DNA of 64,000 nt, from positions 2,420 through 66,419 of IMG/VR virus record IMGVR_UViG_3300021254_000035; one strand, given 5' to 3'. Made by a program: the position numbers and the translations under genes. Below the pieces are notes generated by a model that saw nothing but the letters and a program-made list of their open reading frames with translations, was not told the origin of the DNA and did not search any database. Numbering within the stretch: position 1 is the first letter of the stretch; each line of letters begins with the position of its first letter. Below, one piece after another: positions 6,498 to 61,725 of the stretch. Source of the stretch: a virus (taxonomy: Duplodnaviria; Caudoviricetes).

Positions 6498-6742
6498 ATA
6501 GGATAGGAAGCGACAAGTACCTTCATGTTATCTGCTCGCTTCTTCTTACCTTCTTGATAGGAAGGTTTGCAGGGATATGGCTGACGGTCTATGTCAGTGC
6601 CTTAATAGGTATCGTTGTTGCCTATGACCTTGGGATAATCAAGGAGATTTATGACAGGGCGCACGGTGGAAAGATAGATAAAGATGATCTCTGGGCTGAC
6701 TTTGTTGGTTGTGTGATAGGATTCATAATGTTACTTCTATGA
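6485..6742 (+). CDS. Small membrane protein
   Basis: DKYLH..., KEIYD..., DLWAD motifs with three hydrophobic segments; overlaps both neighbours. Confidence 0.6.
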   Translation: MRILNRIGSDKYLHVICSLLLTFLIGRFAGIWLTVYVSALIGIVVAYDLGIIKEIYDRAHGGKIDKDDLWADFVGCVIGFIMLLL

Positions 6743-8251: not shown

Positions 8252-8800
8252 ATGGATCAAGCTATTACAATTGAGATTAGTCTGGAACAGACTTTGAACG
8301 ATATTCTTGCAGAATGCAACCTTATCGGAAAGAACATGGGTGAGGAGGCGAGTGCTCAGCTTCAGGCTGACATTAAGAGTCCCGACAATCCTGAGACGAG
8401 AAGTATTCTGTGCCGTGCGCACACTGAGGCTTTCGGCAATGTGAAGCTGGCATGCCACAGGTATATCACCATGGGTAGAGTGGAGGATGACAACCGGCTG
8501 GAACGACTGGTGAGCAGTGTTGACACAGACCAAGAAACAGGTGAAGTTACTGCAGTGCATTATGAGAAGGTTGAGCTGGTACTGAAGATCCCTGATTTCA
8601 ACATTGCTGTGACGGATGCGCTGAAGAACCATATCCATAAGTACATTGTGGACTATGTGATGTGGCGTTTCCTGCAGAACCAGGCAGATGCGAAGTGTGC
8701 GGAATACAAGAAGCTGGCCGATGAAGAGGACTATCCGAACATTGAGCACGACCTGACCATCAGGAACAGGTTTACACTGAGAAAACCCCATTGGTATTAA
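8252..8800 (+). CDS. Hypothetical virion protein (adaptor-like); may be a distant paralogue of the N-terminal part of 7392-8213
   Basis: 182-aa ORF. LKNHIHKYIVDYVMWRFL resembles LGNKIQYYLAHVVVAGWL. Confidence 0.55.
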   Translation: MDQAITIEISLEQTLNDILAECNLIGKNMGEEASAQLQADIKSPDNPETRSILCRAHTEAFGNVKLACHRYITMGRVEDDNRLERLVSSVDTDQETGEVTAVHYEKVELVLKIPDFNIAVTDALKNHIHKYIVDYVMWRFLQNQADAKCAEYKKLADEEDYPNIEHDLTIRNRFTLRKPHWY

Positions 8801-8821
8801 CAGAACCATGAATGAGATGAG

Positions 8822-8859
8822 AAAAGGGATGTGTCAAGATAGGCACATCCCTTTTTTTT
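8822..8859. terminator. Bidirectional intrinsic terminator
   Basis: AAAAGGGATGTG...CACATCCCTTTT with a T-run, between convergent genes. Confidence 0.85.
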
Positions 8860-8895
8860 GTTGAAGCGGCAAAAACGCTACCTACAGAGAAAGCT

Positions 8896-28878: not shown

Positions 28879-29406
28879 ATGGGAATGATAGGTGGTATGG
28901 CCGGGGCTGCAGGAGCTGGCACGGCTTCGATTATCGGTGGAATTCTAAGCTCCAGGGCTGCAAACAAGGGCTACAAAGAAGCCTTGCAGCAGTATAATGA
29001 TCGGCTTGATCAGATACGTGCTCATCGTAACAATCTATATTATCAAGATCCGACGCAGAGCGCAGAGAGTCAAGCAGCTGTAACCAATGCTCGTGAACTG
29101 TTGAATGAGCAGGCCAAAAGAACAGCTGGAATAAATGCTGTTGCTGGAGGAACAGACGAGTCGGTTGCTTTACAAAAGGAAGCAACTGCAAGAGCTGTTG
29201 GCAATATGCTGCAGCAGCAAGCAGTTGAAGGAGCTGCAAAGAAAGAAGGGATATGGGACACTGCAGATCAGCAGATCAACCAGTTTTCCAATTATATTGC
29301 TCAGACCAAGCTGAACAAGGGGCTTGCAAAGGCCAAAGCCCTATCAGACACAGCGCAAGGAATTGCTAAGTCGCAGATTGAATTCGGAAAGTCAATGCCG
29401 TGGTAA
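28879..29406 (+). CDS. Internal virion/ejection protein 1
   Basis: Gly/Ala-rich N-terminus and Ala/Gln-rich helices; first gene of the operon. Confidence 0.6.
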   Translation: MGMIGGMAGAAGAGTASIIGGILSSRAANKGYKEALQQYNDRLDQIRAHRNNLYYQDPTQSAESQAAVTNARELLNEQAKRTAGINAVAGGTDESVALQKEATARAVGNMLQQQAVEGAAKKEGIWDTADQQINQFSNYIAQTKLNKGLAKAKALSDTAQGIAKSQIEFGKSMPW

Positions 29407-45600: not shown

Positions 45601-48600
45601 GTGGGAGAGAAGGAAGATGGCCGAAGAGGATGAAAGTGATCCTATGCCTATCATGCCCGACACTGAAGGTATTGAAGACTTTGAGGAGCTTAAACGTATT
45701 CAAGACGAATACCGAAAGCTGTACCAGGAATGGGAAGTGAGACACGGTATTGCTGATTTGGAGAATGCTGATCTTGGTCTTTATGATGTAGCAACAGGGA
45801 AAAAGGATGTATCACAGCCTACCGAAGAAGAACAGTTGCTGGATCAAGAGATTGATGCCAGGGTATTGCAAGACATCGGTAATGCTGTTGGCTTTAACAC
45901 AACTCCAGAAGGAGCACGCAAACAGGTGAAGTATGCTGTTATTAACAGAAGAAAGAATCTGGAAAGTGCGAGTGCCGAAGATGCCATATTTATTCACGAC
46001 CTGACAAAACGACTCGATGATATAGCTAAGAACATATCCTCACAGGGAGGAGAAAAGGTTACGGGCAAGATGCTGAGGGAAGCTTTACCCGACATCATTG
46101 AAGGTACATACGGCTATGATATTGTGAAGGCTGACAACGGTGAATGGATCAGGATGGATCACAGAGCCGCTATGCCTATTCAAATGACACCATCTTTGCA
46201 GAAGGTTCTTGATGATATCAAGGACTGGTATGATGAATTCTATCATGTTCTGGAGGATGCAGGATTGAGAGGCAATGCTGGATATATTGCCGAGGGCTAT
46301 GTGAACCACATCTGGGATAAGGAAAAGAGTGATCCGAAGGCATGGAAGGAGTATGTTGAGAACTATCAGCGTACAAAAAGCCCGAATATGAAGAAGAGAG
46401 AGATTCCGACGTATGCTGAAGGTATTGCTGTTGGGTTGGTTCCAAAGTTCACTGACATCACCGATATCATGTCATACTATTCAAGGAGCAACAACGAAGC
46501 TGTTGCCAACAGAAAATTCCTTGATGATCTGGCTTGTATCAATATTGATGAGCTGAATAAGGATGGCGAGGTAGTGAGATCATTGCCTTTGATTACTAAC
46601 GTTGAGCCGTACCATTTGGATAAGGAATCATATACTAAGCCATACGATGTTCCTGGAGTGGGTGATGTGTGGGTACATAAAGCAGCAAAGCAGCGTTTTG
46701 CCAGCGTGTTCGGTACGATGAGAACAGCGGATATTCCTGACTGGGTTCATAGTCTTGGCAAAGGTTGGGACGTTATTGGTGGCACAGCTAAGAAGATACA
46801 GCTGAGCTTTAGCGGTTTCCATGCAGGAGCCTTGACGGAGGTTGCTTTGGCACAGATGCGTCCTGACAAAGGCATGAGGGCATTGATGGAGTACGTCGTA
46901 CTGGACAGCATCAAGAAAGGCACTTTGCCAGCTTACGCCCATCCAGAGGACTTTAAGCTTGCTGCAAAACATCTGGTCAACCTTGGTGCTACCGCCGACT
47001 ATGCAGCTGCAGACGTGAACATGATTACCGAGAAGCTGAGGAACTTTGTACGAGATCTTGCCAATGAGCAGAACTTGGCAAAGAAAGGTATAGGAAAGGC
47101 CATGACACCTGTAGCAGCGATGCTTGACTTTATGAACAAGGGAATGGACACTGTTCTTTGGAACTATATCCATGATGGTTTCAAGATTGCCTGTTTCAAG
47201 ATGTTTGCTGAGCAGGTTGAGAAGAGACTGAACAAGATTTATGGGCAGAATGGGCTTGATGGGCAGAATGGGCTGAGTAAGGAAGAGATGAGAGAACAGT
47301 TACTTGATGAGGCTGGACAGTATGTCAACGACACGTTTGGCGGTCAGTATTGGGAACTGTTGGGTGTCACACCGGCACAACTCAAATGGATGCGCAGAGC
47401 CTTGCTTTCACCCGACTGGCTGGTGAGCACACAGCGTCATTTCTTGGCAAACTTCGGAATCGGCAGCTTGTATAATGAAGGTGGGTTCCTGGAGTATATG
47501 AGATACAACGCCGACAACTTGAAACGAGCTTTTGGTGTGGACATACCAAGGAATGAGTTAAGAAGGTTTAGGAGCAAGAACGCCAAGCAGTGTTACATCT
47601 TGGGCGTATGTGTATTCTTCTATAGCCTGATGAACGCCATCAATGCCATTGTAAGAAAGTCTGATGAGGACAATGAACGCATGAAGGCAGAGGAAATCAG
47701 AAAGACTGATCCAAACTACCGTTCACCCTACGAGCTTGCTTATCCTGAAGGCATGAAGTGGTATGACTATACCATGTATGGCAATACGATTGGTCAACAG
47801 ACACACCTTCTTCTTGGTCGGTACAAGGATGGAACCGAATGGTATGCACGATGGGGTAAGCAGTTCAGGGAATTCCCAGAGTTGTTCATGGGACGGCATG
47901 GTGTTGAGTTCCCAGCCCCGATGATCGAGCGCATGATGGGTAAATCAAATCCAATGATCAGCTACATCCGCGACGGTCTTGGCACCTTGGATGTTCACGG
48001 TTTTGACATTCCGTATCAAGAGAAAGAAACTGTTGAGAAATACGGCAAGGAGATAGCTTTCCTGTCAATGACTGCCAAGCATTTCCTTCCGTTCAGTGTT
48101 CCTACGCAAGCAGACAAGGAATTCAAGACATGGGATTTGGTTATGCCTAGTCAGAAGGGATTCACTCGCTGGAAGGCCGTTGATTTCTTCAAGACCTACA
48201 TCAATGCTGGTGATATGCACGGAATAGAACGCACATACCATGCAGCTGTGATGAACAACCTGAATGCTGAGGAGTGCCTGCAAGCAGCTATAGCAAGCGT
48301 GAAGGCCACCCAGAAGAAGGAGCTGGTTGATGGTGTTACTGATCTTCCAAGTGCATTCGAGGCATTTGACAATGCTAAGACATTGAAGGAAAGACAACTG
48401 ATGCGAAAGAAGATCATCCAGTATATGACCGGTGAAGACTACAGGGCATTTACCATGGCTGATGCAAGAGAGAAAGCATTATCATTCTGGGAAGGTGATA
48501 AGGAACAGACAATCACAAAGGATAATGACAAGTACATCATGCAGGCCACAGCTGAAGATATCCGTGATGACTATAAGATGGATGCCCTATACAAGAAGAG

Positions 48601-48838
48601 CAACGAACGGCTGAAGCAGCTGCATGAGATTGAAGATGCAGGAAAGGACACGCGCCGTTGGGAGAATTCCTTTGGAGAGTGGATAGATATCCATGATATG
48701 CTACTTGATTACCGCCGCGACATCAAGGATATGAAGAAAGATCTTGATGGAAGTAATGACAAGGAGGTTATGGATAAGATCAGGAAGCTCAGGAAGGAAG
48801 TGATGACAAGAATAGACAACATGGATAAAGCTGAATAA
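30650..48838 (+). CDS. Giant polyvalent internal virion protein (6062 aa)
   Basis: Recognisable domains (approx. nt): inorganic pyrophosphatase-like GNYKKGH..ENPKGS.R..DGDHLDVF (36800-37250); Pol-beta nucleotidyltransferase HGSRMRG..DSDID (37480-37700); PBECR/RelE-like RNase (37760-38130); LPD5-like KIEDVGEVIAGARKD (from 38325); LPD1 zincin HEWWH (39640-40450); JAB/RadC HNHPSG plus a degenerate copy (41100-41930); zincins HENIH and HEYGH; DEIQS domain (43000-44930). Confidence 0.85.
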   Translation: MNNDNLRNLYKTFEKEGYEMPSYEDFEKDMQDDNNLHDAWETLKGDGYEPPEYDTFKTDMGFGAAPEAQPAETVSVSGQGTPQVNYSQAVYDRYENQVPKRTGNNDAVVQSLDEIAAEMEREKPGSSKPGFFEGMSFEGMGKQLKEGGKNVIGKILGFFDNKQDKGSIGNMEAAAMPTEEQMVQHGGSIGYQAGESVGTLADTAGTGAVVGNVIQKNAQPAFYEEQQQRVDPAKPLVEQELMNDDRGFGEFMQQGIDRFRKGQQETDPTLDDEGNQLQIPLYNQEAALRGDIQRIDADVMRKFNEELASNKQQAGEYMRNTPGNPFAPTEVNLMNIGREANKIADPSKAIESAIKYADEQTKDMPDEVRYQVIESLLGQMEEQLINERIPSGTAEYVFWRGFKDSDLGRIMSSVVDTNYEKYLDQVAASRYKAGFWENLGKGAVTLASDMWEYVLPAGAAGKAGKWAGGKISGRIMNDLIRRGVPKSQAARIAERLTANSVGKSILQHGASNAVTFGTAGAISGAVEGLTEPATVDGMSIERARMERDMHMPDPIFGVDQHDALDAKIKEAEAEQYSAKNLFGKIFERAAWGVGTGVATSFGAPLGEIIGHGRGVAGKILGDATRLGVNATAMTGVGALEQATTPGAQPLTFEDLLLAEANNLLTFGALEARGIYNRAKNYRNIQQFEKAYDITDADKAKMKDLGYGDMLDAVEQLTTGKTAGAQPAEKKPNVITRLVNGERVSEVKMPQTKESSGVDQVESQNLKNGLQQLVNDYNAGRISEEEARKWYGLITGDYSQQLQPITGVSQRTDISPEGKVQHFVDYLDAQGRRVRTVEAKTEEEAKQLSDDYRQEAQLNQISALEDMVTDKDVQEHFAETVRRDFGGSSGSETEGTETISTGGVREKIDRLNDLRARKKLHEMGEGKALTAEEERMLEEGLSTYERDVANIFGREDQLQEALQKQAEGGDLLPYEESLIQSAQNIYRNHAGHSKAASDFAREFEKRNGMEEGTLSQILEKKDRSEAEQKAVDDYVTDLQEYLRPRTEQVEIEEAGNPTTNATESVVDMAPGVEPPTETPAGDAAQTAVASEAYSKGQAAVQANDAAAMRNIGYEMQKADARMSKLFTDDEAKAIYDAVESGDEEALATVTQKHTEPAKLDAIEKLKEAHDAMRGIEDAINDSYIGNDEAIRAEIEPYQNEQGEIVFLKLSNGSSVYYVSGDLNNAYGTVMVAYTGEDGSVRHAQVPVKEITETGTPVGIDDYVQVRAEMDRKVDDERYKGIISGTELRKGNQVELTMGNTTGVFTVDGFFSNGDVQLRDENGGVIRMTKDEALEMMQATEDKRINQDLADEQAAYKEAERVRQEEEKARLEAQRKFEEERRGKIAEIQKTVVDEAAARPQPTEQNEEATKWNGLAIADVADAEGVRKYLLDKYESEADADTFMNEQRRILKSHQRDEIQPEIDKIRKQLDDYTTGKVELSDEELTGLITQLSGWETEQNRLNGVAEALKDISDALPKTYAERNADVLKNSTPYEQRMAELSKARTNEDKVRIARKLYGNDPDVGTLFDDLDVPADATELVSMFLKPRVLRWEGVDQGGVHLRGVEDELGKHMKRGVGRNVDSNNINTFLAAKGEGKTVDEFVHDIWESPENHPVGAEEKRFDDTEIRNALINLLLSAKNPTEIRDLIIDGRIAEAERILKEVQDREEEYEMQSWAESYHLPASERESYESELLRVGEEYSSLSDDDIQKINAIFAEQNELRDEQNRRSQEMDRQPIVAGAGGEGSGGQAEVQRQGAEADVTKNQGRQVNREGENLTDGTAVPGSDVAGGAQGEFERSIDELGRIEEEWNDKILDYVSQHYPTQAVVSAQTNSPKGKAERKAMLEDPVYQEMVRQQKEALDAADKKVTEAYKKEEEKQANLKPKTELEDNQNYSNEERKALQYVDGESIDEYVKRNDGIAMKEKLEEMYLRGKYGDQWNTIEELFSNKLTNENAYDMGVRAGSMVEDNHEGYALLNLLNNIPVDAVLPFYDGVSSFTARLARAINETNTNPTDGQKEAGNYKKGHLQFGGYNFTVENPKGSVRSGKDASGKPWSITMHNTYGYLTGKGNLGKDGDHLDVFINDDADLDNWNGNVFVVDQVNSDGSFDEHKIMYGFDNEVDALRNYLMNYSRPWHGMGNITGVDKATFDKWVESSNRKQKPFAETRFGDNRDVVEKVMDGIEKKKEVADLSEPKIENNHPSSKVIQGLEDITVEDFLEGVRGDIESILSDNDLSDIVTIKGLALHGSRMRGDAREDSDIDVVVEYEGDISEDGLFNILSDADLAVNGIPVDINPITKGKSGTLEQYMEQSRKYDEEIAKKRQKTEQSKYQLSSETDSEGNRFFEKEGSIDLWTLPKLFAKARRQDAPIRLTERNLQHIIDEHHKEIGNTDDVLAFLDNIFNNAPVLRKARGRGMFVVVEQEKTDKAAIIKLMPSENGDYYNVETAGYYRKNKWKEYEDVIADLREPDQSDAVTDVSKPQTSNQNGRKSINAETQTSSSEGKDKKNIDTLQEKGNKNAKKNENKIEDVGEVIAGARKDMRRKIAESIDSATEKTLIDLPFSKAYKKPDLKKAVEEGALREEDATFYDAFFSTMVNPSKPKVVQSELRMKKWKPDYKTKVERWAEATHEALQVLKEFVEATEEQRDEIIRKALENKYPMRDVELAEIEKRKEWNKDRDFKAGDKTTPNPLWVTYEVMKQLDYKPGEKLDIPYGLLKADAHGTGYYLYNAKNETNYNFHPQSVEDGISDIVWLAKLKRGDADIQHPISSFSTPSTKSETGETGRYRVIWGGSNIKTRDFDNKKEADEFAASRKQQSLVSPIREVVRRFGYKVVFRNPLTNDKIVVDDQEFDTKNEAQAYLEDNYDELNEKLNNILSEQRKDKKRTELKADDLVFVSMVRGNDNKWTYGVIMDKKYANYYGMPRVLKEGFATRDEAKKYAESIKDEVFSTYKNYKTKQKNIVYFDTGENSRLGEDYRGGKDVSAEDFMNTFGFRGVQFGNWTNQADRQMAVNQAYDAFLDLAKLIGVSPQALSLNGELGIAFGARGAGGFAAHYEPGEIVINLTKTQGAGSLAHEWWHALDNYFARAAGEKGGMVTDDSRLEMRPELRDAYNTLTRQVAASKYFARSKAKGDYWGRMHEVTARLLAEWVDQELKKRGELNTFLSRGANTERTMENNYLFYEVMQKIAGKEVMPFEEFKKTDEAMSGSPYPSKAEVDSFADAMRNIFDVMQERKDEETGNIMLYEPDFEYNAQEPRPRRRNPKVVSHIEGNLFPEEKEGELFDDKKAAAKPQPTKKPESKLEKLSDKQLLEGIGQNANSKDWDLYIDEYDKRHRDEYQDALAAYSDMLEKENVSLEDAYGMYADVAAKWNDKGFASDERSKLMAQVDALEEYVDRLESEAIEREEAEEEEAAAKQQPAEKKARYEEDKTDVRAHGYDLTKIRLRELGEGEVSHVERRYVENGSFSFTGGEHIESAADVAYIFRQLEDAAVENSFMVLIKDGVPTVIHLAIGSYNAVHAPIEQAFAAYKEIDPDNVIFLHNHPSGNLVASREDLALQKKVEAMFGRKALPGIIINTKSGKYAEFNSEGSNQIGLRPKSVDKDIPVRVFNFSKQVFAKDWNPETAFEGSDSRSMAAFVSSHRLGDHNKMSLIVMDQAGHITGNIFLPWTTTNEISKQANALQIATYVNQMGGRYALIYGNTTVTDSKDIKILKTNLDGYNVKLRDVMTIEGSAHDKGLLFEPDVVYKGSAKDMMEAVGKQYHGKEMVFLDKTHGEEQLLKDLGMYDEVTKMKGSPEYDAIMEHLRKNLGKAGASYNRDTKKIYIFAPEMTSSYAEEAYFHENIHAILDDWYGDGKRTIAERFWNVMPDDGKVNKAYVKEKSTDKSEYAEEAFAYWLSRSMQDGDVADFLNYFDEADKERINNILKTFGYDAEKESERRVRLRRNQHVSEAQSGYSETDEGLSRSESEGSGAGVKSGTLAYIKDVTLPSESSTSAQGDQYTKPAGVDSSEGKDKKNSDTLQEKPQKYDYGEINTGEKEREAKELATKAVMQVLDNSGVSYHEVSQAEAMAVLRKTQALREGRSFHVDTPVFVSNALKAVEGIRQEKATPEQWLAMIQKNGGLKAGEDKWLGLSDWLKEQASAKRSLTKNEVLDYIRENQIQVEETNYKEYFDVDDNPQMQKFRKEFDGLVEKYESEKNAVEQEANTFNDEMYQKYGGGWANDPERLNEEDRKRNDDMVERWNNMNDSDPHDLAFREMVDNYGDDFEMAFEVNYGNGNLEPQMDMYDEEISDAAKHFLQFEDEPINSTRLSYTTEGLENKKEIALTVPTIDPYNESDNIHFGDAGGGRAVAWIRFGETTLPEDGGEKRRAAEAIEADNAKWYAAHQDFARYGIGDADGSLSKESEERNERQRKAFAEAYAVPQTRKVLVIDEIQSKRHQDAREKGYISDDAKSRLEEARKNVDFAQQEYDNYVVMLKKQHKGEAFEDFYSDLPVLQREMVDSLEQDVYKASEEFEKASEAANSVPDAPFEKNWHELAMKRMLRYAAENGYDKIAWTTGDQQAERYNIGNVVEKIISYDYPEVNDPDGRKTKKIEVRLKDGETMTMRVGQNGKVIEGRSDTEGKDLTDVVGKELAKRIMDGEGKDGTIFDANKDLPAKVIEGEGLRIGGEGMKGFYDQMIPRFMDKYGKKWGVKTGEVELPGLAPAGKYSSKTAKMWAIDVTPEMKESVMQGQPMFSVAGKEPMVTSEGVVYGYTDGKDIYLTDEGINPETPAHEYGHLWVKAIKKNRPDLWENIKDLMREDEVSQKIYQKLLGDNNYNQIHGDEDELYEEVLTNMGGAKNRERFEQAAREVLDEAEGMDETMKIANVISKIRRAFRKLWDWIGKDLFGIKKFKSVDEVTDRMMYDFVEGTDVKTGVEDAVIKQPTEPRNVSFQAGKGKPRQKKGEGMASYFNRLREWERRKMAEEDESDPMPIMPDTEGIEDFEELKRIQDEYRKLYQEWEVRHGIADLENADLGLYDVATGKKDVSQPTEEEQLLDQEIDARVLQDIGNAVGFNTTPEGARKQVKYAVINRRKNLESASAEDAIFIHDLTKRLDDIAKNISSQGGEKVTGKMLREALPDIIEGTYGYDIVKADNGEWIRMDHRAAMPIQMTPSLQKVLDDIKDWYDEFYHVLEDAGLRGNAGYIAEGYVNHIWDKEKSDPKAWKEYVENYQRTKSPNMKKREIPTYAEGIAVGLVPKFTDITDIMSYYSRSNNEAVANRKFLDDLACINIDELNKDGEVVRSLPLITNVEPYHLDKESYTKPYDVPGVGDVWVHKAAKQRFASVFGTMRTADIPDWVHSLGKGWDVIGGTAKKIQLSFSGFHAGALTEVALAQMRPDKGMRALMEYVVLDSIKKGTLPAYAHPEDFKLAAKHLVNLGATADYAAADVNMITEKLRNFVRDLANEQNLAKKGIGKAMTPVAAMLDFMNKGMDTVLWNYIHDGFKIACFKMFAEQVEKRLNKIYGQNGLDGQNGLSKEEMREQLLDEAGQYVNDTFGGQYWELLGVTPAQLKWMRRALLSPDWLVSTQRHFLANFGIGSLYNEGGFLEYMRYNADNLKRAFGVDIPRNELRRFRSKNAKQCYILGVCVFFYSLMNAINAIVRKSDEDNERMKAEEIRKTDPNYRSPYELAYPEGMKWYDYTMYGNTIGQQTHLLLGRYKDGTEWYARWGKQFREFPELFMGRHGVEFPAPMIERMMGKSNPMISYIRDGLGTLDVHGFDIPYQEKETVEKYGKEIAFLSMTAKHFLPFSVPTQADKEFKTWDLVMPSQKGFTRWKAVDFFKTYINAGDMHGIERTYHAAVMNNLNAEECLQAAIASVKATQKKELVDGVTDLPSAFEAFDNAKTLKERQLMRKKIIQYMTGEDYRAFTMADAREKALSFWEGDKEQTITKDNDKYIMQATAEDIRDDYKMDALYKKSNERLKQLHEIEDAGKDTRRWENSFGEWIDIHDMLLDYRRDIKDMKKDLDGSNDKEVMDKIRKLRKEVMTRIDNMDKAE
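35931..36161 (+). CDS. Overprinted 76-aa helical protein nested out of frame in the giant gene
   Basis: K/E/L-rich amphipathic sequence; TATCTTTG -7 box about 20 nt upstream; the main frame here reads as a G/R/Q-rich linker. Confidence 0.55.
   Translation: MNKIEEAKKWIASLSSQELVEKVQEAKQKYSDKVPKLMLRKIKEGKSTEKEKTLQMAQLFLVQMWLEEHKENLSDQ
38250..38295 (-). promoter_or_regulatory. Embedded antisense promoter, copy 1 (46-nt repeat)
   Basis: Minus strand CTTG-N20-TATCTTTG; 43/46 identical to 42759-42804. Confidence 0.6.
42525..42659 (+). CDS. Overprinted 44-aa protein nested out of frame in the giant gene
   Basis: MTQKKNQKEEFVCGGINMFRRLKADIQKLTKGYQDRKAKEAEQE; main frame is an R/S/G linker; upstream AACATTTG is an imperfect -7 box. 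Confidence 0.4.
   Translation: MTQKKNQKEEFVCGGINMFRRLKADIQKLTKGYQDRKAKEAEQE
42759..42804 (-). promoter_or_regulatory. Embedded antisense promoter, copy 2 (46-nt repeat)
   Basis: Minus strand CTTG-N20-TATCTTTG; near-identical to 38250-38295. Confidence 0.6.
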
Positions 48839-51591: not shown

Positions 51592-52089
51592 TTAGTCGTT
51601 GTCGCAACCACAACCACATCCGCACTTGAACGGACGAGCCGGTGACATGAGTTCGACCTTCTGGGCGTTCTCACTGTAACGGCCTGTCATGAGACCGGCG
51701 ATCACCTGCTGCACCACGTCCTGTGTGACGGTCTGGCTCTGTGATCCCTGTTGGCTACCGCTGAGTGTATCATTGATGGTTGTCGTGATGTTCACGTCAC
51801 CTGCGATACGCTCTGCACGCTCTCCTGCAATGCTCTGAGCATTCAGTTTCACCAGTTCCCGGAGGTCATCGTGCTGAGACTTTGCCACCTCCTTTGCTTC
51901 ATGCGCCTTCGCTCCAGCCCATGCACCGGCAGCTACTGCAGCTACGGCCGCACCGACACCAACAGCGAGTGCACCGATGGCAGTACCGCTGGCACGTTTG
52001 GACTGCATGTGTCCGACCTTGAACTGCTCATAAGGCGACATGCCTTCCTTCTCAAGAGCTTTCATCGAAAGATAATCGTTCATTTCCAT
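51592..52089 (-). CDS. Cassette gene 1: Gly/Ala-rich TM hairpin, coiled coil and CGCGCGC tail
   Basis: GTAIGALAVGVGAAVAAVAAGAWAGA; ends FKCGCGCGCDND; preceded by TATCTTTG (52149-52156, minus). Confidence 0.75.
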   Translation of the reverse strand: MEMNDYLSMKALEKEGMSPYEQFKVGHMQSKRASGTAIGALAVGVGAAVAAVAAGAWAGAKAHEAKEVAKSQHDDLRELVKLNAQSIAGERAERIAGDVNITTTINDTLSGSQQGSQSQTVTQDVVQQVIAGLMTGRYSENAQKVELMSPARPFKCGCGCGCDND

Positions 52090-53282: not shown

Positions 53283-53324
53283 GGAAATTTATCATGAGAG
53301 CGAAAGCGCGTTGGATTATCTTTG
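53283..53324 (+). promoter_or_regulatory. Late-type promoter B (portal)
   Basis: GGAAATTTATCA-N22-TATCTTTG. Confidence 0.7.
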
Positions 53325-53348
53325 CTTTGTAATTACAAAGAATCGGAT

Positions 53349-55418
53349 ATGGTATTGACAAACAACGGTGTCGAAAACCCAGTATCAGGAGCCTACGAGG
53401 AGGGTATGGACTCCCTGCGCTGGATGGAGCACAAGATATTCTCATCGGACAGCTACTACTCGCAGCTACTGCGCGAGGCAGCACATTACTATGATGACCT
53501 TGAACCCATGCGAAAGAAATGGATTCGGGCTAACGACTATTTCATGGGTAGGCAGCTGAACGACAAAGTTGTTTGGAACGGAAGAACGATTACCGTTGAG
53601 AAGTACCTCCAGTTGAAGGGACTCCCTGCATTCCAGAACGACATTATCAGTGACAAGGTGCTGACCTTGAAAGGTCTGCTAAGACAGGAGAACATGGCCG
53701 CTACCTGCAAGAGCACCGATGCCAACGAGGACATGTTTGCAGCCATATTCAGCGAGTTCCTTCGTAAAAATGACAACCTTAACCGTCGGCAGAACCTGAA
53801 TGCGGAATTCTTCCAGGAGTTCTGCATCTATGCTTTCCTTTCAGCCAAGGTGAACTTCACGGAGGTTGACGGACGTGAGGATGTGTACATAGAGAAGAAG
53901 GACATATACAAGCTTGCTTTCCCTGTGTTCGAGAAAAGCGATCTGAGCGACATCAATTTCATTGCTGAGGCTCATGATATGTACTGGAGTGAGTTGCTGA
54001 AGACTTTCTGCAGGGACAAGAACGGCAATGCCAGCAAGTCGGCAGAGAATGAGCTGAAGGATATCTACACCCGTCAGGGTAACATCATGCACAGCAGGCG
54101 ACCGACAGGCGACCGACAAGTGGATTCAGGAGATGATTTCCTTCATAGCAGTGTGATTGGCAAGTACAGAGTCATAGAGATCTGGAAGAAAGAGCGCAAA
54201 AGATCGTTATGGTATCATGACTATGCCACGGCAGACGCTGGATACCGCCCGCTCAGCGACAAGAAGGAAATCGATGCGGAGAATGCCCGCAGGATGGCCG
54301 ACAACATCCGCAAGGACGAGAACGGCATGCCTATCCTTGACGAGAACGGAAACGAGACCTACTACATTGCACCTGAAGACGTGCAGCTGATCCAGTATAA
54401 GGAACGTATCGAAGAATTCTGGTATTACCGATTCCTGAGTCCGAACGGCTATCTGCTCAGTGAAGGAGTAAGCCCATACCGCGTACTACGCAACGGTTAC
54501 GGATTCCACTACCATCCTTATGTGTTCCTGGCATATCCCTGCATCAACGGCGAGACGCGCAGCTTTATTGACCGCACCATCGACAAGCAGCGTGCAACGA
54601 ACCACTACATGATTATGTTCGACGAGATGCTTGGTAACAGCATTAAGGCCATGGCAATTGATGTGAAGAGCGAAACACCCAAGCAGCCGTTGGAAGAGAT
54701 GATAGCTCAAAGTACGAAGCCCAATGGAGTTATCCTTTACGACGGATCGAAAGGCGAGAAGCCAAGTGCCATTCAGGGAACGAACATTCCTGCAGGTCTG
54801 GAATGGATGATCCAGTCCAATCAAAGCATGGTGGTGAGTCAGACAGGTGTTCAGGGAGCTTTACAAGGTGTACACAGGAACACCAGCGGCAAGCAGTACC
54901 AGATGGAGCGTGAGAGTGCGAGCACTACTGTAGCGGACTATATCGGTGCCTTCTATGACTTCTGTCTTCGTGTGAGCAAGGTTCAGCTTTGGATGATCCA
55001 GCAGTTCTACGACAGCAACCGCAGTGTGAAGCTGACCGGCGAGGACTACAAGACCTACTACAATCCCGACACGATGGAAGACGTGAACACCGATCTTGAC
55101 ATGGAGATGGATGCCAACAGTGCCGTGATGCGTGAGGCAAACAACGATATGCTGTGGCAGCTCATGCTCCAGAACCGAATAGACCTGGAAACGATGCTTG
55201 ATTGTGGCGCATTCAGTAACACGGCAAGACTAAAGAAGCGTATTCAGGAATTCAAGGCCAAGCAACAAGCTGATGCTGCAGCCATGGGTGCATTGCCCGA
55301 AGGAGGAGCCGTCAGACCAGCTGACGGTAGTGGAAGCCACTTGATGCCTTCGAATGGCAATACACAAAATGCACCCAAACCACAGCCCACGGTGATGAGC
55401 GGTGGAGTGGGTGGATAA
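53349..55418 (+). CDS. Portal protein (P22-like)
   Basis: About 690 aa. DYF.G.Q, N.I.DKV..L.G, HYHPYVF and L+DRTID.QR..N motifs; QTGVQGALQG; Q/A-rich barrel-like C-terminus. Confidence 0.8.
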   Translation: MVLTNNGVENPVSGAYEEGMDSLRWMEHKIFSSDSYYSQLLREAAHYYDDLEPMRKKWIRANDYFMGRQLNDKVVWNGRTITVEKYLQLKGLPAFQNDIISDKVLTLKGLLRQENMAATCKSTDANEDMFAAIFSEFLRKNDNLNRRQNLNAEFFQEFCIYAFLSAKVNFTEVDGREDVYIEKKDIYKLAFPVFEKSDLSDINFIAEAHDMYWSELLKTFCRDKNGNASKSAENELKDIYTRQGNIMHSRRPTGDRQVDSGDDFLHSSVIGKYRVIEIWKKERKRSLWYHDYATADAGYRPLSDKKEIDAENARRMADNIRKDENGMPILDENGNETYYIAPEDVQLIQYKERIEEFWYYRFLSPNGYLLSEGVSPYRVLRNGYGFHYHPYVFLAYPCINGETRSFIDRTIDKQRATNHYMIMFDEMLGNSIKAMAIDVKSETPKQPLEEMIAQSTKPNGVILYDGSKGEKPSAIQGTNIPAGLEWMIQSNQSMVVSQTGVQGALQGVHRNTSGKQYQMERESASTTVADYIGAFYDFCLRVSKVQLWMIQQFYDSNRSVKLTGEDYKTYYNPDTMEDVNTDLDMEMDANSAVMREANNDMLWQLMLQNRIDLETMLDCGAFSNTARLKKRIQEFKAKQQADAAAMGALPEGGAVRPADGSGSHLMPSNGNTQNAPKPQPTVMSGGVGG

Positions 55419-55457: not shown

Positions 55458-55910
55458 TTAAGCTTTGAAGGCGTTGAGCTTTCGCATGGGTTCCGAAAGA
55501 CGCGACATGTAGAAGCGCAGCCACTGATTATATTTCTGTGTGCGAAGTTGGTTATCTTCGCTGCATCCAATGGCATTGCTCTGGGAAGGCGTGTAGTAGA
55601 AACACTCGCGTTTCATATCCTCCACCTTCATGGTACGCTTAGCCTTGATTTTGTGTGAACGCTGCAGGTACTCCATTGACAAAGGATTACCTTTTGTTCC
55701 CTCCTTGTGAACAATCGGAATGAACGTCATGGAGTTTTCATCAAACCACATGTAGAATCGTGCACCTCGGATCTCCTTGAATGCCTTCACGCACTCCTTC
55801 ACGCCCCTTCGCCACATTCTGGTAGCGCGAAAGGTTTCTTTCCTTGTGATGTAGAACTTCCAGATGCGGAAGTAAAATTTTCTGATGCTTTTCTTAATTG
55901 TTTTGTTCAT
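55458..55910 (-). CDS. Basic hypothetical protein
   Basis: 150-aa ORF downstream of terL; MKRECFYYT. Confidence 0.6.
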   Translation of the reverse strand: MNKTIKKSIRKFYFRIWKFYITRKETFRATRMWRRGVKECVKAFKEIRGARFYMWFDENSMTFIPIVHKEGTKGNPLSMEYLQRSHKIKAKRTMKVEDMKRECFYYTPSQSNAIGCSEDNQLRTQKYNQWLRFYMSRLSEPMRKLNAFKA

Positions 55911-55961: not shown

Positions 55962-58130
55962 TTAGAGGATACCGATCTCTGTAGGTGTTGTTTCGGTAAG
56001 ACGGCGGTTGATTTCAGCCAGCTTCTCTTCATCCGTCTTCTGATGCTGGATGTACGGTTTGTCCATATCGAGGCGTGAGACAAACAAGGCTATAGCACGC
56101 GCCATGATACGATCATCGTGATAGCCAGGAGCAGCACCATAGACACCTTTATCAGCATAGAAGAGATAGTATCCCATCTCAGTGAGAGCTTCCTTCTCAG
56201 ACTCAATGTAGTCACCTTCTCGGACGATCTTCACCAAGTGCTTAATGAGTGCAGGTTTTGTTGACTGATTGGTGTTGAAGCCCCACTTTGTTTCCTTTTG
56301 TCGGTGTTTGAGCAGCTTGGACTTATTACCTGAGTAGAGATTGCTATACAGCGGCAACAGGATAGGGAAGAAGAGCTGGGACACATCACCTTCAGTATTG
56401 TTCATCTTGGAGTAGGCAGTGTTGTTTTCGACAACGAGATAAGCATTGCAGTAGAAGCTTGCCAGCTGAGCACATTTCATTGCCAGCTGATCAGGATCAC
56501 AGTGTCCGTGCCACTCTGCCACCACTTTTTCCACACCTCCGTACATCAAATCGTATCGATCGAGCACCACAATGTCATGATAGTCGGAAGTCTTGTGCGA
56601 CCCACCCACATCAACTGAAATGATATAGCGGTTTACAACAACCTCGGTAGTGTCAGGGTACTCCCACACCTTCAAGTTTCCACCCCTTGTTTCCACCAGA
56701 CGGATATTGCACATGCACGGCGGCAGCTTCAATGAAGAGTATTCATCCTGTACGGGAATATCAGGTATTGAAGAGTCACCCTCGATATCTCCAACAAAGA
56801 TAGGATCGTCGCATCCCTTCTCCAGCTCATCCACCTTATAGGAGTCGAAGACGATATTTCCTGAGTTACGGAACGCCTCGATATCGTCAGAAGGATATTC
56901 CTGCTGCATATCGTCGAGCGATGTCATGTCGGCAAGAGCAGTGATATACCACTTGATGCCTTCGAGTGTTGCACCCTTCTGGAATAGCCACCAGAAATAA
57001 TCACCGTGATTCTTCTTGTCGTTTCGGTTACGCCAGAGTTCGATGGCGAAGTTTGCTCGCTCATCCTCAGTCATCGGTATGAGGTACGTCTCGATCTCAA
57101 ACCACGGAACGAATACCGGTACATATGAAGACTTACCTTCCTTGGCCTCCTTCCATGCATCATAGAACGCATTCTTTCCGTTTGGAGTTGATTCACGTAC
57201 GATGAACGTATAAGCAGCTACCTTGCTGATGGAAGAGATGACAGAGCGGACGATATCCTTTGGATGCCATTGTTCGGTATCTGGGAAGAACGCCTCTTCG
57301 GTGATGTGCGCCATGGCTACGTCGGTAGAACGAGCCGACTCAGGGTTACGCGCCGATCCAGTCTGTATGTCGCATGATCTCGGCACCATGCGCTTGATGT
57401 TCTGCGTTGTTCCCTTCCCCTCGAATTTCTTCAAGTTCTCTGGGTAGTCATCACCAAGATCGAAGAAGAGCCAGTCGGGTACGTTATCGATCAGCTTCTG
57501 GTACATGGCGAAGACGTTTGTAGCAGATGTTGACTGGTGACCTACGATGTTTGAGTTCCAGTTGGTCTTCCAGAATATCTGAATCCATCCCATATAGATA
57601 TCGGTGAGCGTAGATCCACCCCATTGGCGACATTTGAGCAGGATGACACGGATGGGTTTACCATGAAGACGCATATCCTCGAAGATACGCGCCAGCTTCA
57701 GCTGTGCGGGACGCAACAGGAAAGGAATATCCTCTCCTCCCTCCTTGTTCTTGATCTTGGCGTAGCATCCCGCAAAGAAATAGAAATCGTATTTGCAGCG
57801 CAGACGGATGTAATGGCGCACCACCGTTTCGTACTGATCATCGTAGTCACCATCTTCAGGCAAGTATTTCTGGATATACCCGTAGAATGAGTGACAGTTG
57901 AACAATGCAAGGATGAAATCTTCGCTCAGCATCTCTACAGGGATGAACTGAGGCCGACCGTCGAGAAAGTCAGCAATACGAAGCTCACACCTTAGTCCAG
58001 GCGAATTCTCGCCAGTGACAGGATTATACGTCTTTTGGAGCACATCAAGCCTTTGCTGATTCTCCTCCAACATCTGTTGAAGGAATCCAGTGGGCATATC
58101 TGCTTGTTTGCTTATGGATATGGTAGGCAT
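55962..58130 (-). CDS. terL: Terminase large subunit
   Basis: ILLKCRQWGGST Walker A region, AHITEEAFF Walker B, RESTPNG, YIISVDVGG nuclease and HDDRIMARAI. Confidence 0.9.
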   Translation of the reverse strand: MPTISISKQADMPTGFLQQMLEENQQRLDVLQKTYNPVTGENSPGLRCELRIADFLDGRPQFIPVEMLSEDFILALFNCHSFYGYIQKYLPEDGDYDDQYETVVRHYIRLRCKYDFYFFAGCYAKIKNKEGGEDIPFLLRPAQLKLARIFEDMRLHGKPIRVILLKCRQWGGSTLTDIYMGWIQIFWKTNWNSNIVGHQSTSATNVFAMYQKLIDNVPDWLFFDLGDDYPENLKKFEGKGTTQNIKRMVPRSCDIQTGSARNPESARSTDVAMAHITEEAFFPDTEQWHPKDIVRSVISSISKVAAYTFIVRESTPNGKNAFYDAWKEAKEGKSSYVPVFVPWFEIETYLIPMTEDERANFAIELWRNRNDKKNHGDYFWWLFQKGATLEGIKWYITALADMTSLDDMQQEYPSDDIEAFRNSGNIVFDSYKVDELEKGCDDPIFVGDIEGDSSIPDIPVQDEYSSLKLPPCMCNIRLVETRGGNLKVWEYPDTTEVVVNRYIISVDVGGSHKTSDYHDIVVLDRYDLMYGGVEKVVAEWHGHCDPDQLAMKCAQLASFYCNAYLVVENNTAYSKMNNTEGDVSQLFFPILLPLYSNLYSGNKSKLLKHRQKETKWGFNTNQSTKPALIKHLVKIVREGDYIESEKEALTEMGYYLFYADKGVYGAAPGYHDDRIMARAIALFVSRLDMDKPYIQHQKTDEEKLAEINRRLTETTPTEIGIL

Positions 58131-58155: not shown

Positions 58156-58686
58156 TTAATGGGAATTTGTATTCAAAAATGAGGAGAGGTAGCGTAGTTC
58201 ACGTTCTGCATAGCTGTAAAGACAGCCTGAGATGAATGCAAGCAGGTGGTATGATGCAGCCATGTTCGGTATAACAAAGCCCAGTGCGAGGACTAAGGCA
58301 ATCTGAAAGATCATTGTTTTGTATGATGAAGACATCCGAAGGTGACGGTTGCGGTGATACCGCAACATACAGGACGTGATGAAACCCGTGAAGAAGAAAA
58401 TGACGACAGACATACCCACCACTGGATGAGAAGGCTGAATGTATGGAAGGAATGAGATGATGACTGATGCCAGATATGCAGCGATGCACCTATGTACGTT
58501 GATTACCCTGTTGAGTATGATGAGGCTGAAAGCATTGAGCAGCCAGTGGATGATGTTTGCGTGCGCGAACATATATATAAAATGTGTGAGGCATGATGAT
58601 TCATGTGACACGGCCATTGCTGAAGCTAACGGTATCAGCAAAAGCATGACAAGTACGGAAGCGGTGGTTGCGTATAGCTTATTCAT
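58156..58686 (-). CDS. Rhomboid-family intramembrane serine protease
   Basis: YMFAHANIIHWLLN loop motif, GMS catalytic Ser in a TM helix, SYHLLAFISG catalytic His; about five to six TM segments. Confidence 0.75.
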   Translation of the reverse strand: MNKLYATTASVLVMLLLIPLASAMAVSHESSCLTHFIYMFAHANIIHWLLNAFSLIILNRVINVHRCIAAYLASVIISFLPYIQPSHPVVGMSVVIFFFTGFITSCMLRYHRNRHLRMSSSYKTMIFQIALVLALGFVIPNMAASYHLLAFISGCLYSYAERELRYLSSFLNTNSH

Positions 58687-59122
58687 GATCGACAGTCTTA
58701 GATTTAATGTCGTACTGGTAAATATTCAGTCTTCGGCAGAGATACCTTTGCAGCGTTTCCGGACTGAGACCTATGAATGGGGCAGGCTGTTCGAGAGCAA
58801 GATCCACGATGTGCGACATGGAGTGTCCAGCATTCTCCCGTTTGCGTGAAAGGTGTCGGAAGGTGTCATAGAGCGCATTATACAATGTTCTTTTCCGTTT
58901 GTTTCGGAATTTTCTCGGTTTCCCGTTCATTTTATCCTGAATGAAACGTAAAGCCCACTCCTCTGAGATGTAGAACCTTGAAGCTGACATATTCGCCGCC
59001 AGCCTACATATACGCTCTATAGTGGCTGGTGTTCCGACAATTTTCTTCGCTTCGTTATAAAGACGGATGATTTCGTTATCCCTTTCCTTGTTTACCTGTG
59101 AAATCGAGTTTACATGTCTCAT
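58679..59122 (-). CDS. Basic, probably DNA-binding hypothetical protein
   Basis: SASRFYISEEWA...ALEQPAPFIGLSP motif pair; ATG 59122 preferred. Confidence 0.6.
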   Translation of the reverse strand: MRHVNSISQVNKERDNEIIRLYNEAKKIVGTPATIERICRLAANMSASRFYISEEWALRFIQDKMNGKPRKFRNKRKRTLYNALYDTFRHLSRKRENAGHSMSHIVDLALEQPAPFIGLSPETLQRYLCRRLNIYQYDIKSKTVDHE

Positions 59123-59168
59123 AGCTTTGCCGTTACTGAAAGATTTTTGCAAAGATAATAGTAGAATG

Positions 59169-59210
59169 GGAAAAATATCAGCGATAAAGTGTCCATTAAT
59201 AATAATTTTG
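59169..59210 (+). promoter_or_regulatory. Late-type promoter C (scaffold/capsid operon)
   Basis: GGAAAAATATCA-N22-TAATTTTG; a divergent TATCTTTG on minus at 59150-59157. Confidence 0.65.
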
Positions 59211-59234
59211 TGACAGGTTTCAAATAATAACGAG

Positions 59235-59999
59235 ATGGCAACAGAAAATACCAAGAAAACAGGGCGTGAGAAGCTGCTTGAACGGCTTCGCGGACGCAAT
59301 CCTGAGCTGAATACTGAAGATGATGAGGCCGTGAGCGGTCAGATCTCTTCAGACTATGACCAGATGGATCAGCGTGAGCAGGAGCGTGAAAAATTCAAGG
59401 AGATGCTTTCTTCGAACCCTTATGCCGCACCGATTATCACTGGTTTGGCAACAGGCAAGAACGATGACGGTACGGACTTCGATCTGGCTGAATGGTTTAT
59501 CGACAACGAGCCTGACATGCTGATTGATATGATTGAAGGCAATCCAAAGACGAAGGAACGCTACACCAAGATGCGTGATGAGCGCAAAAAGAAGGCCGAG
59601 GAAGATGCTGCTTTTGATGCTGAGGCTGATCAGCGTTTGCAGGCTATGGATGCTGAACTTGATGCTGCAGCTGCAGAAGCTGGCTACAAACCCGAAGACA
59701 CTCGTGATTTGATGGAGTGGTTGTTTGGCAAGGACGGCTTAATTGCCCGTGCCAAGAACTTCGATCTGAAAAAAGACGATTTCCTGCAGATTATCCGTAT
59801 CAAAGACCGCGACAAGGATATCGAGAAGGCCACGAATGACGGCTATGTGAGAGGTAAGAACGAGAAGATTGACGTTACCCAGCACAAGAGAGGTCAGCGC
59901 AACAAGCTGCCTGTTATAGGTGGTGGTGGCGGTCAGCCAAGTTCTCAGGAGAAGGATCCTATGCTGGAGAACCTGAGCCGTATGAAGGATATTTATTAA
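59235..59999 (+). CDS. Capsid scaffolding protein
   Basis: Acidic coiled coil immediately upstream of the capsid gene; GYVRGKNEKI and G-rich C-terminus. Confidence 0.7.
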   Translation: MATENTKKTGREKLLERLRGRNPELNTEDDEAVSGQISSDYDQMDQREQEREKFKEMLSSNPYAAPIITGLATGKNDDGTDFDLAEWFIDNEPDMLIDMIEGNPKTKERYTKMRDERKKKAEEDAAFDAEADQRLQAMDAELDAAAAEAGYKPEDTRDLMEWLFGKDGLIARAKNFDLKKDDFLQIIRIKDRDKDIEKATNDGYVRGKNEKIDVTQHKRGQRNKLPVIGGGGGQPSSQEKDPMLENLSRMKDIY

Positions 60000-60027
60000 G
60001 AGAGTATTCATCAATTTATTATAAGCT

Positions 60028-61725
60028 ATGTGTAAAAGATTCAAGAAATGGTTTGGATTCGTTACCGTTATCATGGTGACCATCCTTACAGGTGGTGGTT
60101 ATGCTATGGCTGCTACCTTACAAGACAATCCCGATGCACCAGCATTGGCAGACCGTATTGAGGATATTCCTGGCGGTGGTGCGAGTGTGCAGAATCCCGC
60201 GAACCGCGAAGGTGGTCAGTGGCATGCAGACAGCGAAGAGATGCAGACTGGTAAGTACAACAATGCGGAGTACTATCGTAAGCAGATTGACAACGTGATC
60301 TGCGAGATGAAGCTGGAAAGCTGTCCTATTGATCAGATTCTGCGAGCCAAGAAGTCATCGAGACATGCTGTTTCAATGATTATCAAGTACTATCGTATTG
60401 GCCAGCGTCCTATTACGACAACTCTGAAGACTGCCATCAATGCCACTAACAACGGATATGGTAACAGTATCGAGCCGGTTAACGCCAAGTGCTTTGACTC
60501 AATGGATACCATTATCTTCCCGAAGGTACAGGGTTATCTGGCTGACGGTGTAACCCGCGATCCGAATCATCCGCTGATGGTTTATGTTGTAGGTAGAACA
60601 GATGCAGGTCAGCCGATCGTTATTGCCGTGAACGGTTCAAAGAGCAACGGTACTAACTGCTTTGACTTACCCGACATTGCAGCAGGTGAAGTGATGCTTC
60701 GTCTTGGCCGTGCAGCAGGTGAGCGCGACGTAAAGACAGGTAGCTACTACACCATGCCTGAGCCAAGCGAGCAGTACTGCCAGCGTTTCATCATGCAGGT
60801 GGAGCAGTCGAAGATTGAGCAGCTGATGAAGACTGAGGTCAGCTGGGACTTCTTGAAGCAGGAGCGTACCGCCATGGACGATATGCGCAACGGTATGGAG
60901 CGCAGTGGTCTGTTTGGCAAGAAGGGCGTGACCAGCTGGAGTGACCGCGGTCAGATCTACTTCACAGGTGGTATCTACTATGAGGCAGGCAAGGATCTGG
61001 AGATTGGCCACTGGGCAAAGAAGATTGACGAGGCAGGCAATGCCATCCAGCAGGCTGTTCAGGATAAGGATGACAACGGACATCTGTTGTATAACGCAAC
61101 TGTGACCACTGGAGGTACGGCAGCCACAGTAGTTGTTTACAAGGATGGTACAGCATGGAAGTCTGCAGCAGACGGGACAACAGTAACTCCTGATACAGGA
61201 ACCACACCGACCCCGAAGACATCAAACAAGTACGTATATGAATACGTGATTACCCAGAAGGAGCTTGTCCGATTCATTAACGATGTGATCAAGGATGCAG
61301 GTAATGGCAGTCGTACAAAGCTGTTCTTCGTTGACAACCTGATTTATCAGGCACTGTCGAACCTGAAGGCCGACAACCGACTGATTGCATTCCGTGAAGA
61401 GAAGGATTACGAGAACTGGAAGCTTGACTTCGAGAGCTTCAGCTCTATGGGTACGAAGATCCTGATCTATCGTCACGATGCCTTCAACTACATGAAGATG
61501 GACGGTATGGGCTTCTGCCTTGATCCGCGTTATCTGGAGAAGTGGGTATTCATGGACTGGGATCGCAACGATTACGACCTGCGCAACCTGTTCATCCGCA
61601 ACTCAGATGCAGTTGTGATGACCGAGTATTCAGCATGGACATTACAGTTCCCGAATGCACACGCAAGAGTGAGCCGTCCTGAGTTTGATCTCGACGGTGT
61701 TACCGATGAGCTGCAGGCTGCTTAG
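60028..61725 (+). CDS. Major capsid protein with a hydrophobic N-terminal leader
   Basis: Follows the scaffold gene. NYCQ/YCQRFIMQVEQS-type motif, DDMRNGMERSGLFG, FTGGIY, VMTEYSAWTL; strong terminator after it. Confidence 0.8.
   Translation: MCKRFKKWFGFVTVIMVTILTGGGYAMAATLQDNPDAPALADRIEDIPGGGASVQNPANREGGQWHADSEEMQTGKYNNAEYYRKQIDNVICEMKLESCPIDQILRAKKSSRHAVSMIIKYYRIGQRPITTTLKTAINATNNGYGNSIEPVNAKCFDSMDTIIFPKVQGYLADGVTRDPNHPLMVYVVGRTDAGQPIVIAVNGSKSNGTNCFDLPDIAAGEVMLRLGRAAGERDVKTGSYYTMPEPSEQYCQRFIMQVEQSKIEQLMKTEVSWDFLKQERTAMDDMRNGMERSGLFGKKGVTSWSDRGQIYFTGGIYYEAGKDLEIGHWAKKIDEAGNAIQQAVQDKDDNGHLLYNATVTTGGTAATVVVYKDGTAWKSAADGTTVTPDTGTTPTPKTSNKYVYEYVITQKELVRFINDVIKDAGNGSRTKLFFVDNLIYQALSNLKADNRLIAFREEKDYENWKLDFESFSSMGTKILIYRHDAFNYMKMDGMGFCLDPRYLEKWVFMDWDRNDYDLRNLFIRNSDAVVMTEYSAWTLQFPNAHARVSRPEFDLDGVTDELQAA

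Follow-up and report, generated by a model that had tools for sequence, protein, structure and literature searches.

Major capsid proteins with a signal-peptide-like leader and a rhomboid protease share the head module of gut Bacteroidales phages

The shell proteins of tailed phages are soluble and cytoplasmic, and the head maturation proteases known so far are likewise soluble, being packed into the prohead. In HK97 (gp4, acting on the delta domain of gp5) and in T4 (gp21, acting on gp23) the cut is made after shell assembly and the propeptides are soluble and scaffold-like. The membrane does take part in T4, where prohead initiation is membrane-bound (portal gp20 with gp40) and head assembly starts on the inner membrane with later release. 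Among rhomboid proteases, AarA of Providencia stuartii cuts a short N-terminal piece from TatA at a small-residue site at the periplasmic end of the helix and so activates TatA. Here we describe a tailed-phage locus in which the major capsid protein (MCP) begins with a signal-peptide-like leader and a rhomboid protease is encoded in the same head module. It lies in a 64-kb stretch of DNA, the window, cut from the 66,419-bp IMG/VR virus record IMGVR_UViG_3300021254_000035 (100% complete by CheckV), and all coordinates are those of the window. An earlier note on this DNA had drawn attention to the pair and had proposed that procapsids assemble tethered to the membrane and are released or matured by intramembrane proteolysis.

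The locus resembles HK97 and T4 in that the head genes include one for a phage protease, which would take an N-terminal propeptide off the MCP. It differs from them in that the protease is membrane-embedded, the propeptide is a membrane helix and a separate scaffold-like gene is present, so that any cut would come before or outside shell closure. Indeed the rhomboid, modelled as a six-helix integral membrane protein rather than a soluble protease, could for that reason not be packed into the shell in the manner of HK97. In T4 it is the portal and not the MCP that contacts the membrane, and release proceeds without intramembrane proteolysis. The likeness to AarA and TatA would be the removal of an N-terminal piece at a small-residue site by a bacterial-type rhomboid. 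However TatA is N-out and loses 8 residues, whereas the MCP leader is predicted to be N-in and its whole helix would go; the P2' residue of the MCP is acidic or polar, not hydrophobic, and the substrate here would be a capsid protein. Our literature search turned up no account of an HK97-type MCP that bears a leader, nor of a phage rhomboid linked to capsids.

The MCP precursor is encoded at 60028..61725 on the + strand (565 aa). It matches SU10_MCP (PF17236) with 51.7 bits against a cut-off of 24.1 and phrog_26635 with an E-value of 1.7e-70, and its gene stands in the head module near those for the portal, the large terminase subunit (terL) and a scaffold-like protein, which together identify it as an SU10-type MCP. 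It is the core domain that matches the SU10-type family. The Pfam match begins at residue 85, and outside the Pfam model lie the leader (residues 1-28, 60028..60111) and an acidic, Gly/Pro-rich hydrophilic linker that connects it to the capsid core (about residues 29-84, 60112..60279). The N-terminus reads MCKRFKKWFGFVTVIMVTILTGGGYAMA followed by ATLQD, with the predicted cut between the two, after A28. The leader is made up of a basic end (CKRFKK), a hydrophobic helix (WFGFVTVIMVTIL), then TGGG and YAMA, which is the layout of a Sec-type signal peptide (basic end, hydrophobic stretch, small residues at -3 and -1). With Sec signal peptides cut by LepB it shares the basic end, the hydrophobic stretch, the helix break, the A-x-A and the length of 28; it differs from them in its cargo, a capsid protein that must end up cytoplasmic, and in that the leaders of relatives reach 40-50 hydrophobic or small residues. 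A lipoprotein signal was rejected for lack of a conserved Cys past the site, and a Tat signal for lack of a twin-Arg.

The signal-peptide-like leader that the earlier note had described is conserved in about 190 distinct relatives. It is kept in 120 metagenomic homologues (49-98% identity), nearly all of which start MKKFKKWFGF-(hydrophobic)-LSGG-x-AYA-[M/I/L/V/A]-A followed by acidic residues, and in three isolated Bacteroides phages (BF1-TP2, BKO1-TP3 and BS-TP4) whose MCPs are 32-37% identical to that of the window. Among 33 distinct leader DNA sequences from one subclade there are many silent third-base changes, and the amino-acid changes are swaps among I, V, L, M and F. The consensus of 193 distinct sequences (median leader length 28 residues) is G(-8) G(-7) S(-6) [A/S](-5) [Y/F](-4) A(-3) [M/L](-2) A(-1) before the predicted cut and [D/E](+1) after it, with A at -3 in 77% and G at -7 in 75%; the Ala at -1 is imposed by the rule used to pick the site and is not an independent finding. 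From this pattern of conservation we judge the leader to be translated and conserved. It could have been an annotation artefact if the true start were Met27 (60106), an ATG that in the window lies two codons before the predicted cut, and a start downstream of the hydrophobic segment was among the outcomes that the earlier note had named as fatal to its proposal. In many relatives, though, I, L, V or A stands in place of this Met of 'AMA', so that a start at 'MA' cannot be general; the upstream frame is open, its basic and hydrophobic pattern is kept down to about 30% identity with synonymous variation, and the upstream ATG lies 28 nt past the scaffold stop as in other members. The residues of the relatives and the synonymous variation of the leader rule out Met27, and we give the artefact almost no credence.

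The leader carries a mean net charge of +3.3 before the hydrophobic stretch and -3.2 over the 20 residues past the site, and the linker of a 98%-identical relative has a net charge of -5. From this asymmetry the positive-inside rule predicts an N-in leader, which would leave the capsid domain facing the periplasm. An AlphaFold2 model of the whole MCP, built on 11 aligned sequences, was too poor to use (pLDDT 43.8), and a complex prediction from alignments of the rhomboid with MCP residues 1-70 gave a score of 0.02 and a mark of 0.32, which speak neither for nor against binding. Several 'leaderless' calls in one subclade (loci L084-L086 and L087-L093; representatives such as P0166 and P0186) seem to start too far downstream. 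In contigs related to these representatives the upstream frame is open and encodes a hydrophobic segment, and automatic annotation may trim leaders in that subclade. One of these loci, the 10.1-kb IMG/VR contig L087, holds the same MCP gene twice in inverted orientation (298-1782 on the + strand and 8325-9809 on the - strand), probably an assembly artefact.

The rhomboid gene (58156..58686, - strand) encodes a six-helix protease of the mini type of 176 aa that belongs to PF01694 (37.7 bits against a cut-off of 22.6; MEROPS S54). All the motifs are present: HxxxN on helix 2 (H47, 58546-58548; N51, 58534-58536), GxS on helix 4 (S93, 58408-58410) and His on helix 6 (H147, 58246-58248). The earlier note had called the rhomboid intact, and this has held: H42, H47, N51, G91, S93, G101 and H147 are invariant both among 53 unique phage copies and across an alignment of 25 sequences at 18-55% identity, while G154 is invariant in the former and at least 90% conserved in the latter. 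Invariance of the catalytic residues at such divergence argues for selection for proteolysis. The AlphaFold2 model (pLDDT 92.1, pTM 0.87) is GlpG-like. The first 38 structures that Foldseek matches to it are all GlpG or iRhom (probability 0.99-1.00, TM-score 0.50-0.65, E-values of 4e-3 and weaker), and among PDB chains a profile of the phage copies hits GlpG, with 2NR9 scoring best (E 2.2e-6). With GlpG of E. coli and H. influenzae (PF01694; 2NR9, 2IC8) the phage rhomboid shares the six-helix core and the placement of the three motifs, the predicted fold (TM-score 0.55-0.65) and a predicted periplasm-facing active site, at about 11-18% identity. It differs in being encoded within a packaging operon, and presumably also in having no cytoplasmic domain and a shorter loop 1. 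Mean Lys+Arg counts over 64 copies are 1.5 at the N-end, 1.8 in loop 2, 2.4 in loop 4 and 2.4 at the C-end, and 0.1, 0.1 and 0.03 in loops 1, 3 and 5, which predicts the canonical topology, in which the active site opens to the periplasm.

In the profile search phage mini-rhomboids scored 77-185 bits and cellular rhomboids below 60. A recent capture of a host rhomboid was rejected, as the phage group far outscores the cellular one and no close cellular donor was seen. A phage-type copy of 139 aa that ends after helix 4 was found in a bacterial chromosomal context (L181 and L182, 8001-8420), between GH97 and melibiase-type genes; it belongs to a cluster of 89 member sequences, with the protein listed in 72 index blocks, and is probably a fixed prophage remnant. 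No Peptidase_S78, ClpP, S49 or S77 match was found across the whole 66,419-bp record, which extends to the complete genome what the earlier note had said of the window, that no HK97-type prohead protease is visible. Such a lack is not unusual, because P22- and T7-like phages use a scaffold, and a scaffold-like gene is present here too.

The rhomboid is the phage protease gene of the head module. Its start overlaps by 8 nt the end of the gene upstream of it, and terL (55962..58130, - strand, 722 aa; phrog_2, E 3.3e-22) starts 25 nt past its stop. The upstream gene (58679..59122, - strand), read from Met 59122, encodes a small soluble protein of about 147 aa that is possibly terS-like: it matches phrog_27246 from residue 60 of the longest open reading frame (ORF) onward, resembles the gene preceding the rhomboid in locus L183 (E 6e-7) and weakly resembles the gene directly 5' of terL in the rhomboid-free locus L091 (E 0.008). 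Across a divergent region from these three genes lie the scaffold-like gene and the MCP gene. The former (59235..59999, + strand; phrog_22323, E 1.4e-20) encodes an acidic protein of 254 aa for which position and composition suggest a scaffold role, and its place before the MCP, with 28 nt between them, is conserved in relatives. In related loci the portal genes are of the P22 type and there are adaptor genes of the SU10 type. Even where MCP identity falls to about 30% the rhomboid keeps its place between the terS-like gene and terL, and the gene order, including rhomboid and leader-bearing MCP, is the same in the isolated temperate Bacteroides phages BF1-TP2 and BKO1-TP3. Bacteroides phage BS-TP4 matches both proteins by tblastn; among cultured phages searched in this way, MCP matches came only from these three and rhomboid matches from two of them. 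In L183 (6283-6789), a 9.7-kb phage contig, the pair of small protein and rhomboid is followed by HicA/HicB and YafQ-type toxin-antitoxin genes, so that the rhomboid is not always beside terL.

A profile search of 1.84 billion cluster representatives returned 535 relatives of the MCP, and among the best 150 of these 109 of the 127 full-length MCPs have a hydrophobic N-terminal leader. IMG/VR loci were fetched for several MCP subclades (some others were left out of the rhomboid sampling) and were scored for leader form and, with a profile iterated on all loci, for the rhomboid. The counts that follow rest on the 150 non-redundant loci with enough flanking DNA. A short leader occurs together with the rhomboid in 65 loci and without it in none; 66 loci have a long leader and no rhomboid, and 8 have neither. 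In the other 11, rhomboid-positive loci, the leader was called 'long' by an automatic hydrophobic-span measure that is noisy, in some cases apparently because longest-ORF starts overshoot. In the window's own clade leader and rhomboid were found together in all 82 loci of the first search that had enough DNA, and in one member (L015) the rhomboid lies elsewhere in the genome and was seen only by searching the whole record. Further rhomboid-positive loci from later searches and further clades all have a leader-bearing MCP, and no rhomboid with a leaderless MCP was seen among the loci sampled. About 45 more distant MCPs that score against the profile of this family (start MA-IAGLRGTGDW) have neither a leader nor a rhomboid nearby. 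Genome bins holding the rhomboid-free long-leader clade are mostly Bacteroidota, and the host group of the phage described here is gut Bacteroidales. The comparison confirms the leader as a family-wide trait of Bacteroidota phage MCPs and the rhomboid as a fixed part of the head module in one large branch associated with the gut. Of the co-occurrence that the earlier note had proposed to check, one direction stands, in that the rhomboid always comes with a leader; the converse does not.

On an MCP tree rooted on the leaderless group all rhomboid-positive rows (76 of the 150 loci) fall within one clade of 81 tips with a support of 99. Two rhomboid-free sublineages inside this clade (L084/L090/L091/L092 and L256) have long leaders like those of the outgroups. 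In the first locus sample the hydrophobic span of rhomboid-positive MCPs had a median of 15 residues and was followed by about 67 hydrophilic residues up to the core, against about 41 residues and then about 27 in rhomboid-negative ones. About three events seem to account for the joint changes of leader form and rhomboid state, and we regard the pairing as suggestive. Because the events are so few, it is statistically inseparable from shared ancestry.

MCP and rhomboid share a gene module and a clade. The leading reading of this arrangement, which we hold tentatively and at somewhat less than an even chance, is that the rhomboid would cut the MCP leader. The MCP would be made as a precursor whose 28-residue signal-peptide-like leader brings the nascent protein to the cytoplasmic membrane, and the phage rhomboid would be expressed together with terS and terL. 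It would cut the leader near the periplasmic helix end, just past the GG helix break, at or close to the junction of [Y/F]-A-[M/L]-A and [D/E], and the freed MCP with its long acidic linker would assemble with scaffold and portal. One may speculate that only leader and linker enter the membrane, as a loop, and that cleavage lets the chain slip back. Relatives that have a longer leader and no rhomboid would use a host enzyme or leave the leader uncut. We infer membrane insertion of the leader, its cleavage, the rhomboid as the cutter, and a capsid domain that stays in or returns to the cytoplasm. The geometry fits, since the rhomboid active site is predicted to face the periplasm, where the end of an N-in helix with the predicted cut would also lie. 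At the site there is a helix break, with Ala at P1 and Tyr/Phe at P4, and P1 and P4 residues of that kind match the published recognition motif of bacterial rhomboids. The complete record has no S78, ClpP, S49 or S77 protease. As to timing, if the N-terminus lies inside the shell, as in other HK97-type capsids, a tethered N-terminus would be incompatible with a closed shell and the cut would have to be made before or during assembly rather than as a late maturation step.

Several observations weigh against this reading. The leader is much older and wider in distribution than the rhomboid. The 66 non-redundant long-leader lineages, some of them complete genomes, have no rhomboid within about 10 kb, so that the leader works without a phage rhomboid; of 23 whole records searched none reaches the PF01694 cut-off, six of these being at least 90% complete and some having terminal repeats. 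Nor was another conserved multi-helix membrane protein seen near the MCP in rhomboid-free loci, and with no rhomboid in the whole records we rejected an alternative phage membrane protease in these relatives. With only three rhomboid changes on the tree an independent-pairs test had one or two informative pairs and was not significant, and co-inheritance alone could explain the pairing. The predicted cut is a textbook signal peptidase I site (A-x-A, GG at -7/-8, length 28), and as the A-x-A fits that enzyme the host could cut the leader. The P2' residue is Asp or Thr, acidic or polar, and bacterial rhomboids prefer a hydrophobic P2'. With the N-terminus in, the 537-residue capsid domain would end up in the periplasm. 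DNA is packaged in the cytoplasm, and the two could be reconciled only if translocation were aborted; the model of the earlier note had no account of this. The paper describing the three Bacteroides isolates does not mention a rhomboid, and a literature search found no virion proteomics for any family member. Of the earlier proposal of membrane tethering and intramembrane proteolysis, then, the conserved pair and its position in the head module lend support, whereas the wider spread of the leader and the A-x-A motif do not.

The rhomboid could instead have a target other than the MCP, the pairing with the leader reflecting shared ancestry. To look for such targets we compared 24 diverse rhomboid-positive loci over about 7-10 kb around the MCP, where only rhomboid and MCP are conserved with a membrane-like segment. 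Across seven whole rhomboid-positive genomes the conserved membrane-like proteins are these two and a Gly-rich protein of 175 aa (28879..29406, + strand). This protein, whose Gly/Ala-rich N-terminal segment is 'glycine-zipper'-like and whose gene lies two genes upstream of a giant ORF in the window, is a candidate alternative substrate; it is present in all seven rhomboid-positive genomes and equally in all three rhomboid-free whole genomes, which counts against it. Other candidates are lysis proteins, which are too variable to be tracked by BLAST and of which holin-like and spanin-like ones are encoded at 2070-2660, 6237-6742 and 6709-7278, and host membrane proteins, whose cleavage could serve host takeover, the exclusion of other phages or counter-defence. 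The earlier note had named a further one, a 165-aa single-helix membrane protein (51592..52089, - strand) with a Gly/Ala-rich membrane helix, a C-terminal CGCGCGC repeat and no family match. We rejected it as a conserved substrate since it has no match in 17 related phage records at an E-value of 0.01, in a search made without a positive control. That only about three gain or loss events lie behind the pattern, that the leader works elsewhere without the rhomboid, and that the rhomboid of L183 adjoins toxin-antitoxin genes instead of terL would all agree with a non-MCP target. The constant position between the terS-like gene and terL down to about 30% MCP identity, and the change of leader form along with rhomboid state, would not, and we consider such a target unlikely, though the foremost of the alternatives.

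A second possibility keeps the leader as the substrate and changes the enzyme: host signal peptidase I would remove the leader throughout the family, and the rhomboid would play a supporting part such as degrading leftover leader peptides or cutting stalled precursors. The canonical A-x-A site past a helix break and the typical signal-peptide length speak for it, as does the fact that both enzymes act at the periplasmic face; moreover many complete rhomboid-free phages have leader-bearing MCPs, for which a host enzyme or no cleavage must suffice. Yet the long leaders of the rhomboid-free lineages often lack a clean A-x-A at their end, and compact leaders with the rhomboid versus long ones without it would be left unexplained. 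The topology problem is the same, and to our knowledge rhomboids do not act as signal-peptide peptidases. We judge this explanation unlikely as well, a little below a non-MCP target. The leader might also never be removed, staying on the MCP as a hydrophobic N-terminal helix that holds shells at the membrane until lysis, bundles inside the shell or holds lipid. Cleavage by the rhomboid is after all our reading of the sequence; the leader is ancestral to the large Bacteroidota phage MCP family, and most leader-bearing phages of the family encode no protease at all. Against this, an HK97-type lattice would hardly accommodate hundreds of exposed hydrophobic helices per shell, the conserved motif of small residues with a hydrophilic linker behind it has the look of a processing site, and we know of no tailed phage with a shell of retained hydrophobic leaders. 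Retention of the leader seems to us distinctly improbable.

The remainder of the head region and of the window can be described briefly. The portal protein is encoded at 53322..55418 on the + strand (PF16510 P22_portal, E 1.3e-33), and between it and terL an ORF at 55458-55910 on the - strand encodes a 150-aa product. The giant ORF mentioned above spans 30650-48838 on the + strand and encodes 6062 aa. Its homologue in BKO1-TP3 is annotated as 'DarB-like antirestriction', that in L180 carries LPD3, ART-PolyVal, MuF_C and LPD38 domains, and the product is probably a very large virion protein with several domains that is injected. In the tail and lysis region a BspA-type leucine-rich-repeat protein (4704-5654, + strand; PF13306, E 1.4e-43) may be a receptor-binding or host-interaction protein.

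The pairing of a leader-bearing MCP with a rhomboid hints at a membrane step in the building of tailed-phage heads. One possibility, which we regard as doubtful at its full breadth, is that a large family of Bacteroidota tailed phages would make HK97-type shells from membrane-anchored MCP precursors, and that in the gut Bacteroidales branch a dedicated rhomboid would release or mature them. If our hypothesis were correct it would represent a new route of capsid assembly and a new class of capsid maturation protease. The MCP would be the first natural substrate known for a viral rhomboid and one of the rare defined substrates of a bacterial-type rhomboid, and the phages would offer a natural system for how a strong export signal is overridden and a protein kept cytoplasmic. 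Should the link prove not to exist, the leader would still have to be explained. The Bacteroidota phages with leader-bearing MCPs form a large and abundant group, and since its members BF1-TP2, BKO1-TP3 and BS-TP4 are in culture a membrane step in their head assembly would be directly testable.

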